From Clostridia bacterium (lineage in GTDB: Bacteria; Bacillota; Clostridia; Christensenellales; Aristaeellaceae): a DNA stretch of 18,948 nt. The position numbers and the translations under genes are program-made. The stretch is from the NCBI GenBank assembly GCA_024404275.1, contig JAKSQG010000018.1:1-18948 (forward strand). Direction: 5' to 3'. Under the pieces are notes generated by a model, which saw only the letters and a program-made list of their open reading frames with translations, was not told where the DNA came from and did not search any database. Shown piece after piece: positions 9,462-16,333 of this stretch (positions are counted from its first letter, which is position 1; each line of letters opens with the position of its first letter).

Positions 9462-9484
9462 GCCATTTGTGCGGAATGGGAAGA

Positions 9485-9504
9485 AAAATGTAACAAAATG
9501 TAAC
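9485..9504 (+). repeat. Perfect tandem 10-bp direct repeat AAAATGTAAC x2, followed by AAA
   Basis: Read directly from the sequence. It ends 15 nt upstream of the candidate -35 of the ABC operon promoter. Confidence 0.9.
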
Positions 9505-9518
9505 AAACGGACAAATCA

Positions 9519-9555
9519 TTGACTTTTGACAGGTAATATTATAAAATGCCATAAA
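9519..9555 (+). promoter_or_regulatory. Candidate sigma-70 promoter of the ABC/catabolic operon
   Basis: TTGACT (9519-9524), a 17-nt spacer, then TAAAAT (9542-9547). The overlapping alternative is TTGACA (9526-9531), an 18-nt spacer, then CATAAA (9550-9555). This leaves a leader of about 90 nt before the GGAGG ribosome-binding site and the ATG at 9643. Confidence 0.55.
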
Positions 9556-9642
9556 AGGGAAATGTATGCCCGAAATCGACATGAATAGGATCAAAACAGG
9601 TGTACATGTCTCTGAAATTCATTTTCTGAAGGAGGATCCCCC

Positions 9643-10584
9643 ATGAAAAAGGTTCTCGCTCTGGTTCTCGCTCTCGTGATGTGTCTGGGCGTTCTGCCCG
9701 CTCTCGCGGCTGATGCTCCCGTCAAGGTCGGCGTGCTCGTGCCCGTCATGACGCATGGCTGGGTCAGCGGCATCACCTATCAGGCTGAAGCTTATGCCAA
9801 GGAACTGGCTGCTGCCGGCACCATCGAGTACAAGCTCACCACCTCCAGCAACGCCGAAGAAATGACCACCCAGATGGATGAAGCCATCCTGTGGGGCGCC
9901 AAGATCCTGGTCATCGCTCCCCAGTGGACCGGCATGGAAGTGCCCGTTCAGAACGCCATCGATCAGGGCCTCATCGTTGTGGCCTTCGATATGGACATCG
10001 ACGCTGACGGCATCCTGAAGGTCACCGGCGACAACAAGTCCATGGGCGTGGCCGGCGCCAAGTTCATCGTGGAAAAGGTTGGCCCCACCGCTACCGTCGT
10101 GGCGCTGCCCGTTCCCACCAGCGGCTCCGTTTCTGAGCTGCGCATGGCCGGCTTCAATGAGACCATCAAGGACATCGCTCCCGAACTGAAGGTCATCGAA
10201 TACGCGACCAAGTTCACCCGTGAGGATGGCCTGAAGGACTTCGCCGATATCCTGGCTGCCAACCCCCAGATCGACGCTGTGTACTCCCTGGATGACGAAA
10301 CCTCCATCGGTGTCCTGCAGGCCATCGAAGATGCCGGCCGTACCGACATCAAGGCCATCACCGGCGGCGGCGGCTGCCAGGAATACTTCGCCATGATCGC
10401 CGAGAACAAGGACATCGCTGTCAGCTCTTCTCTGTACAGCCCCCTGATGATCCGTGACTGCTTCGACGTTGCCCTGGCCAAGCTGGCCGGCGAGCCCGTT
10501 GAGGCCGTGACCGTCATCCCCTCCCAGATCGTGAGCAGCGAAAACGTTGAAAACTACCTCGATCCCAGCAACACCATCTATTAA
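9643..10584 (+). CDS. ABC transporter sugar-binding protein (PBP type I, RbsB-like, CUT2 family)
   Basis: Signal peptide is MKKVLALVLALVMCLGVLPALAADAP. The type I periplasmic-binding fold pattern is present: VGVLVP, ILVIAP, VVAFD, DAVYSLDDETSIGVLQAI. TAA stop. Confidence 0.85.
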   Translation: MKKVLALVLALVMCLGVLPALAADAPVKVGVLVPVMTHGWVSGITYQAEAYAKELAAAGTIEYKLTTSSNAEEMTTQMDEAILWGAKILVIAPQWTGMEVPVQNAIDQGLIVVAFDMDIDADGILKVTGDNKSMGVAGAKFIVEKVGPTATVVALPVPTSGSVSELRMAGFNETIKDIAPELKVIEYATKFTREDGLKDFADILAANPQIDAVYSLDDETSIGVLQAIEDAGRTDIKAITGGGGCQEYFAMIAENKDIAVSSSLYSPLMIRDCFDVALAKLAGEPVEAVTVIPSQIVSSENVENYLDPSNTIY

Positions 10585-10600
10585 TTCAAATGCAATCAAC

Positions 10601-10630
10601 AGGGACTGCCTCCTTCGGGGGGCAGTCCCT
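10601..10630 (+). other. Stable stem-loop without a U-tract after the binding-protein gene
   Basis: AGGGACTGCC-tccttcgggg-GGCAGTCCCT, a perfect 10-bp stem. Confidence 0.8.
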
Positions 10631-10646
10631 AAAACGCGGACAAGCC

Positions 10647-10678
10647 GTTGCGCCTCCGGGGAAGCCCAGAGGCGCAAC
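10647..10678 (+). other. Second stable stem-loop without a U-tract
   Basis: GTTGCGCCTC-cggggaagccca-GAGGCGCAAC, a perfect 10-bp stem. Confidence 0.8.
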
Positions 10679-10762
10679 CCGTATTACTGCACAAAAAGAA
10701 GAAACAAGTGACCTCCCGGTACGCCGCGCGGCGCGCCCGGGGGAAAACAAGGATGTGAAGCC

Positions 10763-12241
10763 ATGAATCTATCCATGAAGGGGATTGTCAAATCCTTCGG
10801 CGCCAATGACGTACTGAAAAAGGTGGATTTTTCACTGGAATCCGGTGAGATCTGCGCCCTGCTGGGAGAGAACGGCGCCGGAAAATCGACCCTGATGAAT
10901 ATCCTGGGCGGTGTCCTTCGACCCGATGCTGGCCAGATCCTGCTGGACGGAAAGCCTGTCACATTCGCTTCTCCGGCACAGTCCCTGAATGCCGGGGTTG
11001 CTTTCATTCATCAGGAGCTGAATCTGATCAACGATCTGCCCGTGTATGAAAACATGTTCATCGGCAGGGAGATCGTCTCCAAAGCCGGGCTCATCAATCA
11101 CAAGGAAGAGCTGAAGCAGACAAAAGAGCTGTTCAGCAAACTGAACATTGATATCGATCCCGCGGTACAGGTGTCCTCCCTGGACGCCAGCTATAAACAG
11201 ATTACCGAAATTTCACGCGCGCTGATGATGGACGCTTCCATTATCATCATGGATGAGCCCACCACCTCCCTGACCGATCCGGAGATCGAGCGCGTTTTTG
11301 ATATGCTCCGTTCCCTCAAAAAACAAAATGTCGGCGTGATCTTCATTTCGCACAAGCTGCGGTAGGTGATGGAGATCTGCGATAAATATGTGGTGCTCCG
11401 CGACGGCAACATGGTGTCCGCCGGCAATGTCAAGGACACCAGCATTGCCGCGCTGTCGCATGACATGGTAGGCCATGATGTGCGCATGGACGCGCTGGAG
11501 CAACGCGCCGCGCGGGGCGGGGAGGTCCTTCGTCTGGAGGATCTGACCCTTGAACCCAGCTACCGCCACATCAACATGCAGGTGTATGCCGGCGAGGTGC
11601 TGGGCGTCACCGGTCTGCTGGGCGACGGGCGCAGCGAGGTCTTCCGCACGGTCTTTGGCGATATGAACAAATACAGCGGCAGGATCTTCCTTTCCGGAAA
11701 GGAAACGGCGATCCGCTCCATTCAGCATGCCATGCAGCTGGGCGTCGGTTATGTGCCGCGCAACCGCAAGGAAAACGCCATTATCAAGGATATGGATATC
11801 CTCGATAACGGCACCATCATCACCATGAAGCAGCTCAGGCGCTTCGGCCTGATCAGCAAGCTGCGGCAGCGGGCCGCCTTCAACAAGCAAAAAGAGGATC
11901 TGCGCATCAAGATGGGCAAGCCCTCCGACCCCATCGGCAGCCTTTCCGGCGGCAATCAGCAAAAGGTCGTTCTGGCCAAATGGCTGATGGCCAAGCCCAA
12001 GCTGCTGGTGCTGGATAACCCGACGCAGGGCGTTGATGTCGGCGCCAAGGAAGAGATCTACGATATTATTCTGCAGCTGGCGGGGCAGGGCGTGGCCGTA
12101 GTGGTGCTGTCCAACGAAGCGCAATAGATCATCCGTGTCTGCAGCCGTGCCCTGGTCATGTACCACGGGGATATCTGCGGTGAGGTTTCCGGCAGCACCA
12201 TGACCGAAGACAACATCATGCGCATGGCCACCGGCGGCTGA
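10763..12241 (+). CDS. CUT2-family sugar ABC transporter ATP-binding protein with tandem NBDs (RbsA/MglA-like, 492 aa). Contains in-frame TAGs at 11363-11365 and 12125-12127.
   Basis: ORFs 10763..11365 and 11366..12127 and the 38-codon tail to the TGA at 12239-12241 all share one frame. NBD1 has GENGAGKST, IIIMDEPT and FISH. NBD2 has GLLGDGRSE, LSGGNQQKV and LLVLDNPT. The total length matches RbsA-type proteins. Confidence 0.9.
11363..11365 (+). other. In-frame TAG codon just after the NBD1 H-loop (candidate sense codon)
   Basis: Context is GVIFISHKLR-TAG-VMEICDKYVVLRDG. As I recall it, E. coli RbsA reads [25 protein letters not shown], which places Glu at this position. Confidence 0.85.
12125..12127 (+). 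other. In-frame TAG codon after the NBD2 H-loop position (candidate sense codon)
   Basis: Context is VVVLSNEAQ-TAG-IIRVCSRALVMYHGDICGEV. As I recall it, RbsA reads [30 protein letters not shown], which places Glu at this position. Confidence 0.85.
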
Positions 12242-12291
12242 TCTCCAAAGAGCGATTCATAAGATTACATCCATCCCGGAGGAAGATTGTT

Positions 12292-13323
12292 ATGACGATT
12301 GAAAAACGCAAAAATCCTCTTCGCCAGTTTGTTGACAAGTGGCAGGAGAATCCCCTTATTTCGACCGGTACCGTGCTGATCCTGATGATCATCATCCAGA
12401 CGATCGCGCTGGGCTTCAATTATGCCAGCTTCGGTGAATGGTTTACCAACTGGGGCAAAAACTGGATCAACATCCTGCGCAACAACGCCGGCGTCGGCAT
12501 TGTCGCCCTGGGCATGACGTTTGTCATCATTTCCGGCGGTATCGATCTGGCGGTCGGTTCCACGCTGGTGGCGGTCGGCGCCATCATGATGGTGCTGATC
12601 AACAGCAATGCGGCGGGCGTATTGACGGCCGTCGGCATTACCGGCGTTCCCGCCTTCATCATCGGCATCGCGGCGGCTCTGCTTGCCGGCGCAGCCATTG
12701 GCGGCATCAACGGCGTGCTGATCGCGCGCAGTAAAATTCCCGCCTTCATTGCCACGCTGGGTATGATGAAGATCTGCCGCAGCGTGACGCAGCAGTTCAT
12801 GCAGACGGTCGGCGTGAAGGTGCCCAGGGATTTCCTTGCCATCGCCAACACACGCATCGGCGGCGAGATCATTCTGCCCATCATCTATTGGTTTGTGATC
12901 GCGCTGCTGCTGCACATCGTCTCCAAGCGGACGACCTTCGGCCGTCATGTCTATGCCATCGGTTCCAATGAGCGCGCCGCCCGCCTGTCCGGCGTCAATG
13001 TCGAGCGCGTAAAGACCCTGATCTATGTGCTGTCCGGCGTGCTGGTGGCCATCACCGCGGTCATCCAGATTGCCCGTATCGGCAGCATGGACTACGCCAA
13101 CGCGGGCAGCGGCTACGAAATGGATGCCATCGCCGCGGTCGTGGTCGGCGGCACCAGCATGAGCGGCGGCAAGGGCTCCATTCTGGGCACGGTGCTGGGC
13201 ATGCTCATCATCGCCGTTATGAATAACCTGCTCAACCTGATCGGCGTACCGCCCTTCCTGCGTGAGGCCTTCAAGGGCTTCATCGTGGTGGCGGCCGTGA
13301 TGCTGCAGAAGAAGGAAAAATAA
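12292..13323 (+). CDS. Sugar ABC transporter permease (RbsC/AraH-like)
   Basis: 343-aa polytopic membrane protein with a GGAGGA ribosome-binding site. Family motifs are GGIDLAVGS, RSKIPAFIATLGMM, AIGSNERAARLSGVNV and GGTSMSGGKGSILGT. TAA stop. Confidence 0.9.
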   Translation: MTIEKRKNPLRQFVDKWQENPLISTGTVLILMIIIQTIALGFNYASFGEWFTNWGKNWINILRNNAGVGIVALGMTFVIISGGIDLAVGSTLVAVGAIMMVLINSNAAGVLTAVGITGVPAFIIGIAAALLAGAAIGGINGVLIARSKIPAFIATLGMMKICRSVTQQFMQTVGVKVPRDFLAIANTRIGGEIILPIIYWFVIALLLHIVSKRTTFGRHVYAIGSNERAARLSGVNVERVKTLIYVLSGVLVAITAVIQIARIGSMDYANAGSGYEMDAIAAVVVGGTSMSGGKGSILGTVLGMLIIAVMNNLLNLIGVPPFLREAFKGFIVVAAVMLQKKEK

Positions 13324-13347
13324 TTGATTCGGAAATGAGGTGCTCCT

Positions 13348-14385
13348 ATGATTCGTGTTGGCATTGCGGGCTGCGGCAAGATTGCCCAGGTCCGCCATCT
13401 GCCGGAATATCAGGCGAACCCGGATGCACAGATTTAGGGCCTGTTTGACCTCAACGCCGGGCGCGCGGCAGGGCTTGCGGCTCAGTACGGCGCAACGGCG
13501 TATGATACCTTTGAAAGCATGCTGGCCGATCCCATGATCGATGCCGTCAGCATCTGCACGGCCAATGCCGCGCACGCGCAGATGGCCATTGCCGCCCTGA
13601 AGGCGGGCAAGCATGTGCTTTGCGAAAAACCGATGGCCATCACGCTGGCCGACTGTGAGGAGATGGTACGTGTCGCAAAGGAATGCGGCAAGGTGCTGAT
13701 GATCGGTCAGAACCAGCGGCTGGCGGCGGCGCATCAGAAGGCGTATGAGCTGATCCGCAGCGGCGCTATTGGCAGGGTGATCACTTTTACCACCGCCTTC
13801 CGTCATGGCGGACCGGAGACCTGGAGCGTGGATTCCGGCAGCGGTACCTGGTTCTTTGACAAGACTCATGCCGCCTTTGGCGCCATGGCCGATCTGGGTG
13901 TGCACAAAACGGACCTGATCCAGTACCTGCTGGGGCAGACGGTGACCAAGGTGACCGCCTACCTCGGGTCGCTCGACAAGAAAACGCCGGATGGAAAGCC
14001 GATCTCGGTGGATGACAATGCCATCTGCATTTATCACATGAGCGGCGGTGCTGTGGGGACCATGACGGCCTCCTGGACCGATTACAGCGGCGAGGACAAC
14101 GCCACCGTGCTGTTTGGCACGGAGGGCGTGATGCGCATCTATGACGACCCCATGCACAGCATCGTGCTGAGCAAGCGTGACGGCACGACCGAATATTATG
14201 ACGTCGACCGGATTCAGACCAACGACAATCAGACCAGCTCGGGCATCATCGATCTGTTTGTGGCGCATCTGATCGATCCGACCAAGCCGTACATTTCCGC
14301 CGAGAGCGTGCTGCCGGCCATGCGTGCCGTGTTTGCAGCCGCCGAATCCGCCGAAACGGGCCGCATCGTGGCTACGAACGCGTGA
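13348..14385 (+). CDS. Gfo/Idh/MocA-family NAD(P)-dependent oxidoreductase (345 aa). Contains an in-frame TAG at 13435-13437.
   Basis: The ATG at 13348 has GAGG 7 nt upstream. The N-terminus MIRVGIAGCGKIAQVRHLPEY carries the Rossmann GxGxxG motif. After the TAG the same frame continues GLFDLNAGRAAGLAAQYG...VLCEKPMA into ORF 13519..14385. TGA stop. Confidence 0.88.
13435..13437 (+). other. In-frame TAG codon in Rossmann strand beta-2 (candidate sense codon)
   Basis: Context is NPDAQI-TAG-GLFDLN. The family pattern is p.aelvavcD, and this position is variable across the family. Confidence 0.8.
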
Positions 14386-14396
14386 GGAGAAGCACC

Positions 14397-15212
14397 ATGG
14401 ACAGAATCGTTGCAATGAATTCCAACAGCTATCATGGCTTTTCTATCGAGGAGGCCATTGAGGGCACTGCACGGGCGGGCTTCCGCTATATGGAATTGAC
14501 GGCCACCAAGGGGTGGACAGAGCATGTTTTCCCCGATCAGCCCCTGCGCCGTCTGCTGCGTGTGCGGGATATGCTTCGCGATCATGACCTGACCCCGTTT
14601 GCCATGAGCGGTCACACCAACCTGACCGACCCTGCCCGCAGCCGCGATTTTAGGGACAACATCCGTATGGCGCAGCTTTTCGGCTGCCGCTACATTGTTT
14701 CCTCCATCGGCGAGGCACACATCCGGGACGGGCATGAGGCCGATCTGGATGAAACGGTGCGCTGCATCGAAGCCTTTGTGCCCGAGTTGAAGGCGGCGGA
14801 TATGATGCTGGTGCTGGAAACGCACGGGAAGGATCACGGCACAGGCGTCCGTCTGGCTTAGATCGTGCGGAAGGTGAACAGCGATCGGGTCAAAGTGAAC
14901 TACGACACGGCCAACGTCGTGTTTTACGGCCGGGTCGACCCGGTGGAGGATCTCAAGGCCTGCGTGAACGATGTGGCATTTTTGCACATCAAGGACAAGG
15001 CTGGCGCTGCGGACGAGTGGAATTTCCCCGCCCCCGGCAAGGGTTATATTGATTTTGACGGCATCTTTGATGTGCTGAATCAAAACGGCAACAACAGCCC
15101 CTTCTCGGTCGAGATCGAGTTCACAGCGGCCGGTCCTTCCAACCTTGAAGAGGTGAATCAGGCGGTACGCGACAGCGCGGCGTTCTTCCGCGCTCACGGC
15201 ATCGCCCTGTAA
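14397..15212 (+). CDS. Sugar phosphate isomerase/epimerase (xylose-isomerase-like TIM barrel, 271 aa). Contains an in-frame TAG at 14859-14861.
   Basis: GAGGAG lies ahead of the ATG at 14397. ORFs 14382..14861 and 14865..15212 share a frame. The pattern LVLETHG ... TAG ... VNYDTANVVFYG ... FLHIKD ... SVEIEF places the barrel's conserved acidic and His residues on both sides of the TAG. TAA stop. Confidence 0.88.
14859..14861 (+). other. In-frame TAG codon in the middle of the TIM barrel (candidate sense codon)
   Basis: Context is HGTGVRLA-TAG-IVRKVNSDRVKVNYDTAN. Confidence 0.8.
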
Positions 15213-15291
15213 TGATTAAAACACATCATCCCCCGTGGCAGACGGAACGGTGTTTGCGGCGGGGGATTGCTGTCATCAGGAGGAAGATCAG

Positions 15292-16257
15292 ATGAATATT
15301 CTGCTTGTCGGCGCCGGCGGCATGGGCACAACGCACTACAACAACTATCGTCAAATCGACGGCGCGCAGGTCGCCGCCCTGGTGGGAACCACTCAGCAGG
15401 ATCGTGATACCGCTCAGGGCTGGGGCATTCCCTGCTTTGAATCGATCGCACAGGCGGTGCAGGCGGTGGCGGTCGATGCGGCGGATATCTGCGTGCCCAC
15501 CTATCTGCACAAGGAGCTGGCGCTGCAGGCGTTTGCCTGCGGGCTGCATGTGATCTGCGAAAAGCCCTGCGCCCTGAGCCTTGCGGATGGCCGGCAAATG
15601 TTTGAAGCAGCCAAAGCCGCGCACCGGCAGCTGTATGTCGCCCAGGTGGTTCGTTTTACACCGGAAACGGCGGTTCTGCGCCGGGTGATCGAAGAAAAAA
15701 CCTATGGCGCGCCGGTGGACGCGGTCTTTGAGCGGCTGAGCGCCCGCCCCGCGTGGACGCAGGGCTCGTGGCTCATGGAGAAGGAAAAGAGCGGTCTGCT
15801 GCCCTTTGATCTGCACATTCACGATCTCGATCTGGCGGTCAGCCTGTTCGGCGCGCCAAGCGAGGTGCTCATCGCTGCCGAGCACGCCGACGGCGGCCTT
15901 CCGACGCAATGCCGTCTGACCTACAAGTGGGCGGATGGCATGACCGCCTCCGCGGAGGCGGCATGGTTCAATGCCTGCATTCCCTTTACCGCGCGCTGGC
16001 GGGTCAGCTTTGAAAAAGGCATGCTCATCTATGACGGCGAATCCGTCAAGGGCTATGACGCCGCCGGACAGACCGTGACCTATGACACCACCGATCCGGT
16101 CATGATCCCCGGCGGGGCGAACCTTCCCGCCAATGGCTGGTTCTATCGCGAGCTGAGCCATTTTGTCGCCTGTGCGCAGCAGAACACTCCCTCACCGATC
16201 GTGACCGAAGAGCAGGTGCTCGCCGTGCTTTCGGTGCTTGAAGAGATTTCCACCTGA
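15292..16257 (+). CDS. Gfo/Idh/MocA-family oxidoreductase (second copy, 321 aa)
   Basis: AGGAGG lies 8 nt upstream of the ATG at 15292. The N-terminus MNILLVGAGGMG is a Rossmann motif, and VICEKPCA is the family EKP motif. The longer ORF starting at 15235 lacks a ribosome-binding site. TGA stop plus terminator. Confidence 0.85.
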   Translation: MNILLVGAGGMGTTHYNNYRQIDGAQVAALVGTTQQDRDTAQGWGIPCFESIAQAVQAVAVDAADICVPTYLHKELALQAFACGLHVICEKPCALSLADGRQMFEAAKAAHRQLYVAQVVRFTPETAVLRRVIEEKTYGAPVDAVFERLSARPAWTQGSWLMEKEKSGLLPFDLHIHDLDLAVSLFGAPSEVLIAAEHADGGLPTQCRLTYKWADGMTASAEAAWFNACIPFTARWRVSFEKGMLIYDGESVKGYDAAGQTVTYDTTDPVMIPGGANLPANGWFYRELSHFVACAQQNTPSPIVTEEQVLAVLSVLEEIST

Positions 16258-16272
16258 CGGGGCGGGTAAACA

Positions 16273-16309
16273 AAAGGACATCGCCATTGGATACATGGCG
16301 ATGTCCTTT
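16273..16309. terminator. Bidirectional rho-independent terminator between convergent genes
   Basis: AAAGGACATCGCCAT-tggatac-ATGGCGATGTCCTTT, a perfect 15-bp stem. The A-rich 5' flank and T-rich 3' flank (TTTGCTTTTGC) allow it to function on both strands. Confidence 0.85.
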
Positions 16310-16333
16310 GCTTTTGCAAAAGGGGAAAGGCTG

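Follow-up and report, generated by a model that had tools for sequence, protein, structure and literature searches.

The locus examined here raises one question: is a gene that is interrupted by a TAG near its 5' end a broken gene, or is the TAG read as an amino acid? The window, by which we mean the whole stretch of DNA analysed (18,948 nucleotides, positions 1 to 18,948 of the forward strand of contig JAKSQG010000018.1, assembly GCA_024404275.1, from an uncultured Clostridia bacterium), carries on its forward strand a gene for a sugar dehydrogenase of the Gfo/Idh/MocA family (13348..14385). The gene has 345 codons and a terminal TGA (14383-14385), and its only in-frame TAG, at 13435..13437, is codon 30, which falls halfway along strand 2 of the Rossmann fold. 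From the comparison of sequences we consider it likely that the gene is intact and codon 30 translated, TAG being a sense codon throughout this genome and that of a sister species, with glutamate as the most likely residue. The grounds for taking the TAG as translated are that a tRNA with the anticodon CUA is present, release factor 1 (RF1) was not found, no genes end in TAG, and TAG exchanges with GAG and GAA.

The frame starting at 13348, where the translation begins MIRVGIAGCGKIAQ..., gives MIRVGIAGCGKIAQVRHLPEYQANPDAQI, then the TAG, and then GLFDLN... on to the TGA. The start codon is preceded by the ribosome-binding site GAGGTG (13337..13342, forward strand, with GAGG at 13337-13340), which leaves a spacer of 5-7 nt to the ATG, and the upstream permease gene ends at a TAA at 13321-13323. 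The stretch containing this ribosome-binding site, GGAAATGAGGTGCTCCTATG, is identical in the sister species. Under translation table 11, the largest open reading frame (ORF) is 13519..14385, which encodes 288 aa (MLADPMIDAVS...) and starts at an internal ATG (13519..13521, forward strand), corresponding to Met58; neither GGAGG nor GAGG occurs in the 25 nt preceding it (AACGGCGTATGATACCTTTGAAAGC). The 57 N-terminal codons that are lost under the standard code (13348..13518) comprise strand 1, the glycine-rich loop GIAGCGKIA, helix A, strand 2 with Asp34, and the helix formed by residues 37-47. A preliminary description of this DNA had placed the start at 13348, with a GAGG after the permease stop and the TAG as the element cutting it off, and had remarked that the standard-code ORF begins downstream of the Rossmann element and has no ribosome-binding site. 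All of these points agree with the coordinates read from the sequence.

The same description had proposed a profile search across the TAG and had argued that the gene is intact only if this codon is translated. When the 345-aa translation, in which the TAG is written as X, is compared with Pfam, residues 2-120 match positions 1-119 of the 120 in the PF01408 profile at 119.9 bits, as a single alignment that is unbroken at the TAG. The 288-aa product from 13519 covers profile positions 57-119 only. The C-terminal domain families PF22725 and PF02894 also match the 345-aa translation, and the three families together cover its full length. An AlphaFold model built on 42 homologues (mean pLDDT 86.7, pTM 0.87) assigns residues 2-7 to strand 1, 11-23 to helix A, 27-33 to strand 2, with residue 30 in its middle, and 37-47 to the next helix. 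Since all of these elements come before Met58, the whole dinucleotide-binding core lies upstream of it. The span of the PF01408 alignment, the model and the genome-level evidence on TAG given below support the argument of the preliminary description.

Foldseek aligns the model over its full length with solved structures of the GFO family, with TM scores of 0.75-0.83. In a 43-sequence alignment formed by the dehydrogenase and the 42 homologues, G8, C9, G10, D34, E93-K94-P95, D182 and H186 are invariant. The glycine-rich loop occupies residues 5-13, the acidic D34 stands at the end of strand 2, and the EKP motif and the D-x3-H motif of the C-terminal alpha/beta domain (D182...H186) are both present. 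Zymomonas GFOR (1ofg), Thermotoga maritima TM_0414 (3ezy), scyllo-inositol dehydrogenase (5ya8) and 1,5-anhydrofructose reductase (2glx) have the same two-domain fold (TM about 0.8) together with the glycine-rich loop, the Asp ending strand 2, and the EKP and D...H motifs, although their sequence identity to the dehydrogenase is only 22-28%. The IolG equivalog TIGR04380 scores 159.6 bits against a cut-off of 355, and no NCBIfam equivalog cut-off is reached; therefore, the dehydrogenase can be described as a family member to which a substrate is not assignable.

The evidence that TAG is a sense codon comes from the genome as a whole. The window is contig C84 of a metagenome-assembled genome (MAG) of 1.57 Mb (G000), with 173 contigs, 56.9% G+C and 74.7% completeness. 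It was compared with the sister species of the same genus (G006, GCA_045599485.1, 81% complete) and with a relative that has RF1 (G004), of which about 1.06 Mb and 1.15 Mb were used, respectively. ORFs with in-frame TAGs are found on 119 of the 173 contigs; their source is therefore not a contaminating phage or eukaryote. In a stop-extension control on genes picked by codon usage under the standard code, the median in-frame run to the next stop was 98.5 codons after TAG, 28 after TAA and 13 after TGA, and runs of at least 50 codons with coding-like composition followed 66%, 16% and 8% of these codons, respectively. Within 480 orthologue alignments the source genome has 96 TAGs, and at none of 173 orthologue gene ends does one of its TAGs coincide with the end. 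The 207 gene pairs formed with G004 contain 22 in-frame TAGs in the source genome versus 3, in 72,789 codons, in G004. TAG accounts for 26 of the 879 stops identified in that relative (about 3%), and for none at the 173 orthologue ends, which means that the genus already made little use of TAG stops, a precondition for a codon-capture route. Inside the window, eight in-frame TAGs are distributed over five genes, and all 12 genes end in TAA or TGA.

Which amino acid is inserted can be approached through the codons that TAG exchanges with. The 480 orthologue pairs between the source genome, its gene set filtered by codon usage, and the sister species contain 178,787 aligned codons. Opposite the 96 TAGs of the source genome, the sister species has TAG 37 times, GAG 31, GAA 12, CAG 4, AAG 3, TGG 3 and other codons 6; conversely, the 104 TAGs of the sister species face TAG 37 times, GAG 34, GAA 10, CAG 10 and other codons 13. 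GAG or GAA is present at 87 of the 122 sites where only one genome has TAG. The same preference is seen against the RF1-positive relative, which has Glu at 13 of 22 sites, Gln at four and five other residues. An empirical substitution model applied to the same pair of genomes gave log-likelihoods of -346 for Glu, -603 for Gln and -676 for Asp, values that derive from an earlier and noisier gene set including antisense ORFs, whose third positions match the sense frame, and spurious TAG-TAA pairs. We think that glutamate is most likely the inserted residue. The 37 TAGs common to both species, compared with the 87 that face GAG or GAA, indicate a codon that is still turning over or spreading.

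A tRNA that could perform this decoding is encoded in the source genome. ARAGORN detects one tRNA with the anticodon CUA (contig C117, 5836-5911), to which the Rfam tRNA model gives 55.5 bits, for a gathering score of 29, and an identical copy is present in only one of 30 related genomes, that of the sister species. Its build follows the tRNA-Glu(CUC) of G004 in the 76-nt layout, G1.U72, G73, U11-A24, U13.G22, the D-loop AGUGGYCYA and the 4-nt variable loop RAAC, and the anticodon loops, CUCUAAA in tRNA(CUA) and CUCUCAA in tRNA-Glu(CUC), differ solely at nucleotide 36. The overall identity is 51 of 76 positions, too low for tRNA(CUA) to be a fresh copy of the tRNA-Glu(CUC) gene, and no more than 53 of 76 positions agree in any other tRNA of the source genome or of the portions of G006 and G004 that were fetched. 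Glu-type CUA tRNAs were also sought by pattern in genome contigs (twice), viral contigs and metagenome contigs, and none was detected, although these scans may exclude records of G000 itself or of near relatives. In Escherichia coli, the identity set of tRNA-Glu combines an augmented D helix (U11-A24, U13.G22..A46, position 47 missing) with the anticodon nucleotides U34, U35, C36 and A37. Judged from its sequence and ARAGORN fold, tRNA(CUA) has the complete D-helix set, and so does the tRNA-Glu(CUC) of G004. The anticodon set is lacking in tRNA(CUA), which has C34, U35, A36 and A37 and differs from tRNA-Glu(CUC) at 36 only.

As for the surroundings of the tRNA(CUA) gene, one side of C117 aligns collinearly with G006 (90% identity), and the alignment breaks off some 50 nt past the tRNA. 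The non-syntenic side (C117 4336-5835; L003 1-1233) holds a helicase-associated, DUF3427-like ORF, and the G+C content of the contig is 52.6% versus 56.9%; a mobile element may have inserted next to the tRNA. Neither G000 nor the 1.06 Mb of G006 that were fetched contain a counterpart of the adjacent tRNA-Gln(CUG) and tRNA-Glu(CUC) genes of G004, which may reflect an assembly gap. The only Glu and Gln tRNAs seen in G000 are tRNA-Glu(UUC) and tRNA-Gln(UUG).

The distribution of the release factor genes is consistent with sense reading. The RF1 gene prfA (TIGR00019) is present in all 15 other genomes of the genus, in 13 above the cut-off and in two as fragments at contig ends, and it was not found in G000 and G006, which are exactly the two of the 17 same-genus genomes that have tRNA(CUA). 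The source genome does have prfB (C130 17051-18115, L002), which matches TIGR00020 over positions 2-353. This gene consists of a single uninterrupted frame of 391 aa, and it seems to be devoid of the usual programmed +1 frameshift site.

With regard to charging, G006, G004 and two further genomes (G007 and G013) each have one gltX and an adjacent GlnRS-like gene, and the G000 assembly lacks gltX. A second, dedicated glutamyl-tRNA synthetase (GluRS) was considered and none was seen in these four genomes. We infer that tRNA(CUA) is charged with glutamate by the ordinary GluRS. A relaxation of the ND-GluRS type at the residue equivalent to R358 of Thermus thermophilus GluRS was rejected as well, the arginine being kept in G006, G004 and G007. 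In its anticodon-binding domain, the GluRS of G006 (L182, contig C71) has Ala at the residue that corresponds to T. thermophilus R370 (MVAFL versus MVRFL in G004 and G007).

Codon 30 itself turned out to be a young and variable site. The orthologue in the sister species is 94% identical and uninterrupted, and it has TGG (Trp) at this codon, for which reason the TAG can be regarded as recent; it looks like a G-to-A transition, TGG to TAG. It is the only convincing TAG-TGG pair within a gene in the sample, the other two lying among the opening codons of ORFs defined from stop to stop. The corresponding column in 120 homologues reads A34 R18 W16 V14 C10 T9 ... E1, the paralogue-like genes of the same genus (about 50% identical) have A, M, I or V there, and the residue of Zymomonas GFOR aligned with codon 30 is Glu. 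Between the two sister species, the 57 N-terminal codons differ by five synonymous and two non-synonymous changes, numbers that are small and yet do not suggest decay of this region. The change is probably missense (W30E), not nonsense, at a variable and poorly constrained position in the middle of strand 2, and the dehydrogenase with Glu at position 30 is presumably active. Judged from these alignments, codon 30 is not a conserved recoded position, and the inference of the preliminary description is refined in this sense. The use of codon 30 as a clue to the amino acid was accordingly given up, the column being variable and the sister residue Trp.

Taken as a mechanism, TAG would be read as sense by a dedicated tRNA(CUA) of tRNA-Glu(CUC) build, the ordinary GluRS would charge this tRNA with glutamate, RF1 would have been lost, no gene would end at UAG, and a TGG-to-TAG transition at codon 30 of the dehydrogenase would have resulted in W30E. 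In our opinion it is likely that two sister species of uncultured Clostridia use UAG for glutamate by means of a tRNA-Glu-like tRNA(CUA) and the loss of RF1, that this use arose recently in one genus, in whose other members TAG already makes up only about 3% of stops, and that TAG is still accumulating, mostly from GAG, with the TGG-to-TAG change in the dehydrogenase surviving as Trp-to-Glu.

Several observations weigh against this explanation. The absence of RF1 is not proven, as it rests on incomplete assemblies (75% for G000 and 81% for G006), and for the ORFs on either side of prfA in G004 no counterpart was recovered from G000 or from the portion of G006 that was fetched. In T. thermophilus GluRS, R358 reads C36, and the equivalent arginine is kept in the GluRS of G006, as in those of G004 and G007, which leaves the charging of a tRNA having A36 with glutamate unexplained. 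The acceptor end of tRNA(CUA), with G73, a weak 1:72 pair, G2-C71 and G10, would also suit GlnRS. Finally, codon 30 is uninformative on the amino acid, with Glu in one of the 120 homologues, and its TAG is only one base (13436) away from the TGG of the sister species.

Recoded phages and classical suppression of the supE type give TAG the meaning glutamine, and a sense TAG that stands for glutamine, or for a mixture of Glu and Gln, is in our judgement unlikely. It finds backing in CAG, the second commonest partner of TAG (at 14 of the 122 sites that differ from G006 and at 4 of the 22 compared with G004), in the GlnRS-like gene beside gltX, and in the fact that the acceptor-end features just mentioned (G1.U72 being the weak pair), together with C34 and U35, resemble GlnRS identity elements. 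Nevertheless, G1.U72 and G73 are also present in the tRNA-Glu(CUC) of G004, the D-arm and the 4-nt variable loop of tRNA(CUA) are of Glu type, GAG and GAA together are the partner at 87 sites and CAG and CAA at only 14, and the log-likelihood is -346 for E versus -603 for Q. Moreover, 83% of the column at the TAG of the TIM-barrel gene of the same operon consists of Asp or Glu. Pyrrolysine, or a context-dependent read-through instead of a canonical reassignment, has a negligible chance in our estimation: ARAGORN labels tRNA(CUA) 'Pyl' from its CUA anticodon, whereas the molecule is a standard 76-nt cloverleaf that scores well on the general tRNA model, PylS was not found in G000, G006 or G004 (best match of 24 bits versus a cut-off of 178), and TAG occupies Glu positions in ordinary housekeeping and sugar genes.

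The remaining alternatives are confined to the dehydrogenase. If the TGG-to-TAG change were a nonsense mutation, translation would stop after 29 residues and the gene would be a fresh pseudogene, yielding at most an NAD-blind fragment from 13519. We hold this to be very unlikely: the TGG of the sister species does mark the TAG as a recent single-base change, and Glu is rare in the column, but tRNA(CUA), the lack of a detectable RF1 and the lack of gene ends in TAG imply that TAG is not an efficient stop. The column is also highly variable, with Glu in Zymomonas GFOR, synonymous differences exceed non-synonymous ones in the 57 codons, and the ribosome-binding site is conserved at 13348 and missing before 13519. 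An error of assembly or sequencing, by which an ordinary TGG would have become TAG in the data, is an idea to which we give slightly less credit still. The single-base distance from the sister TGG speaks for it, but the window has seven other in-frame TAGs and the orthologue alignments have 96, errors would neither produce TAG alone nor pair it with GAG, and recoding would stand even if the base at codon 30 were wrong.

According to Shulgina and Eddy (2021, PMC8629427), all known changes of stop codons in bacteria reassign UGA. A 2026 preprint on 2.7 million assemblies found no supported bacterial reassignment of TAG and treated calls of TAA/TAG to Glu as contamination (10.64898/2026.04.02.715157), and in an archaeal code all TAGs are read as pyrrolysine (2024 preprint, bioRxiv 10.1101/2024.09.30.615893). 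We found no report of TAG-to-Glu on a bacterial chromosome in the literature searched, where the natural stop-codon changes described for bacterial chromosomes all concern UGA. Like the UGA reassignments of table 4 (UGA to Trp, in Mycoplasmatales and others) and table 25 (UGA to Gly, in Absconditabacteria/Gracilibacteria), the code proposed here would combine the capture of a stop by a new tRNA with the loss of a release factor, and would be lineage-restricted and genome-wide; in contrast to them, it would involve UAG, RF1 and Glu instead of UGA and RF2. The nearest functional analogues are the phage TAG-to-Gln and the eukaryotic UAR-to-Glu codes. In amber-recoded phages (TAG to Gln, 'code 15', in crAss-like, Lak and other phages) a suppressor tRNA(CUA) also reads TAG as sense, but in phage genomes, for Gln and through a Gln-type tRNA, whereas G000 is a cellular chromosome with Glu codon partners and a Glu-type tRNA. 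The UAR-to-Glu codes of peritrich ciliates (table 30) and Blastocrithidia (table 31, PMC12153298) use a suppressor derived from tRNA-Glu to read UAG as Glu; they belong to nuclear genomes in which UAA is also reassigned and eRF1 altered, unlike the present bacteria, where a release factor would be lost. The archaeal pyrrolysine code likewise has a genome-wide sense TAG in a prokaryote, but it needs PylS, PylT and pylBCD, none of which was found in G000.

If our explanation is true, UAG for glutamate on a bacterial chromosome is a new bacterial genetic code. It would be a young one, for which congeners that retain RF1 allow ordering the rarity of TAG stops, the loss of RF1, the gain of the tRNA and the spread of the codon. 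The dehydrogenase would then illustrate a side effect of the new code, in which a 'nonsense' mutation from TGG to TAG persists as a missense replacement of Trp by Glu. In practical terms, standard annotation splits or truncates about one in six genes of G000 and G006 and removes the NAD-binding domain of the dehydrogenase. As a natural tRNA that seems to accept Glu in spite of its A36, tRNA(CUA) also bears on how aminoacyl-tRNA synthetases recognise their substrates and on the engineering of suppressor tRNAs.

Besides the dehydrogenase, reading TAG as sense makes four more genes of the window whole: those of an ATPase, a TIM barrel, a 1417-aa surface protein and a GGDEF/EAL protein. In the ATPase gene, codon 201 (11363..11365, forward strand) faces GAG in the sister species, in the context ISHKLR[E]VMEICD, and codon 455 (12125..12127, forward strand) faces GAA, in SNEAQ[E]IIRVC. 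The TAG at codon 155 of the TIM-barrel gene (14859..14861, forward strand) is kept as TAG in the sister species, and 120 homologues have D70 E29 Q7 S6 in this column. The surface protein gene (4113-8366) has two, at codon 686 (6168..6170) and codon 1360 (8190-8192), both on the forward strand. The gene of this surface or cell-wall-anchored protein is absent from the syntenic place in G006, where the AP_endonuc_2 gene is directly followed by the LacI gene (L035 1-2070). On the reverse strand, the GGDEF/EAL gene (230-2872) has a TAG near its 3' end (326..328), 31 codons before its TAA at 230-232; the second TAG of this gene, at 2855-2857, may be upstream of the true start.

The dehydrogenase gene is the fifth of seven in a sugar-utilisation operon on the forward strand (8440..16257). 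The others, all on the same strand, encode a LacI regulator (8440-9423), an RbsB-like binding protein (9643-10584), the ATPase of a sugar ABC transporter (10763-12241), the permease (12292-13323), the xylose-isomerase-like TIM barrel of the AP_endonuc_2 family (14397-15212) and a second GFO protein (15289-16257). A Rfam scan of the window gave no RNA family. An antisense open frame of 735 codons on the minus strand (12265-14472), which overlaps the permease and dehydrogenase genes, is an artefact driven by G+C content, its third codon positions falling on those of the sense frame. When 13348-16257 of the window was compared with loci L007-L011 of relatives of the same genus, the ABC transporter genes proved to be 71-86% identical at the DNA level. 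The dehydrogenase at the matching operon position in those relatives has only about 50% protein identity and is paralogue-like, and the closest homologues (75-78%) come from MAGs of other Clostridia, a pattern that suggests replacement of catabolic genes within the operon.

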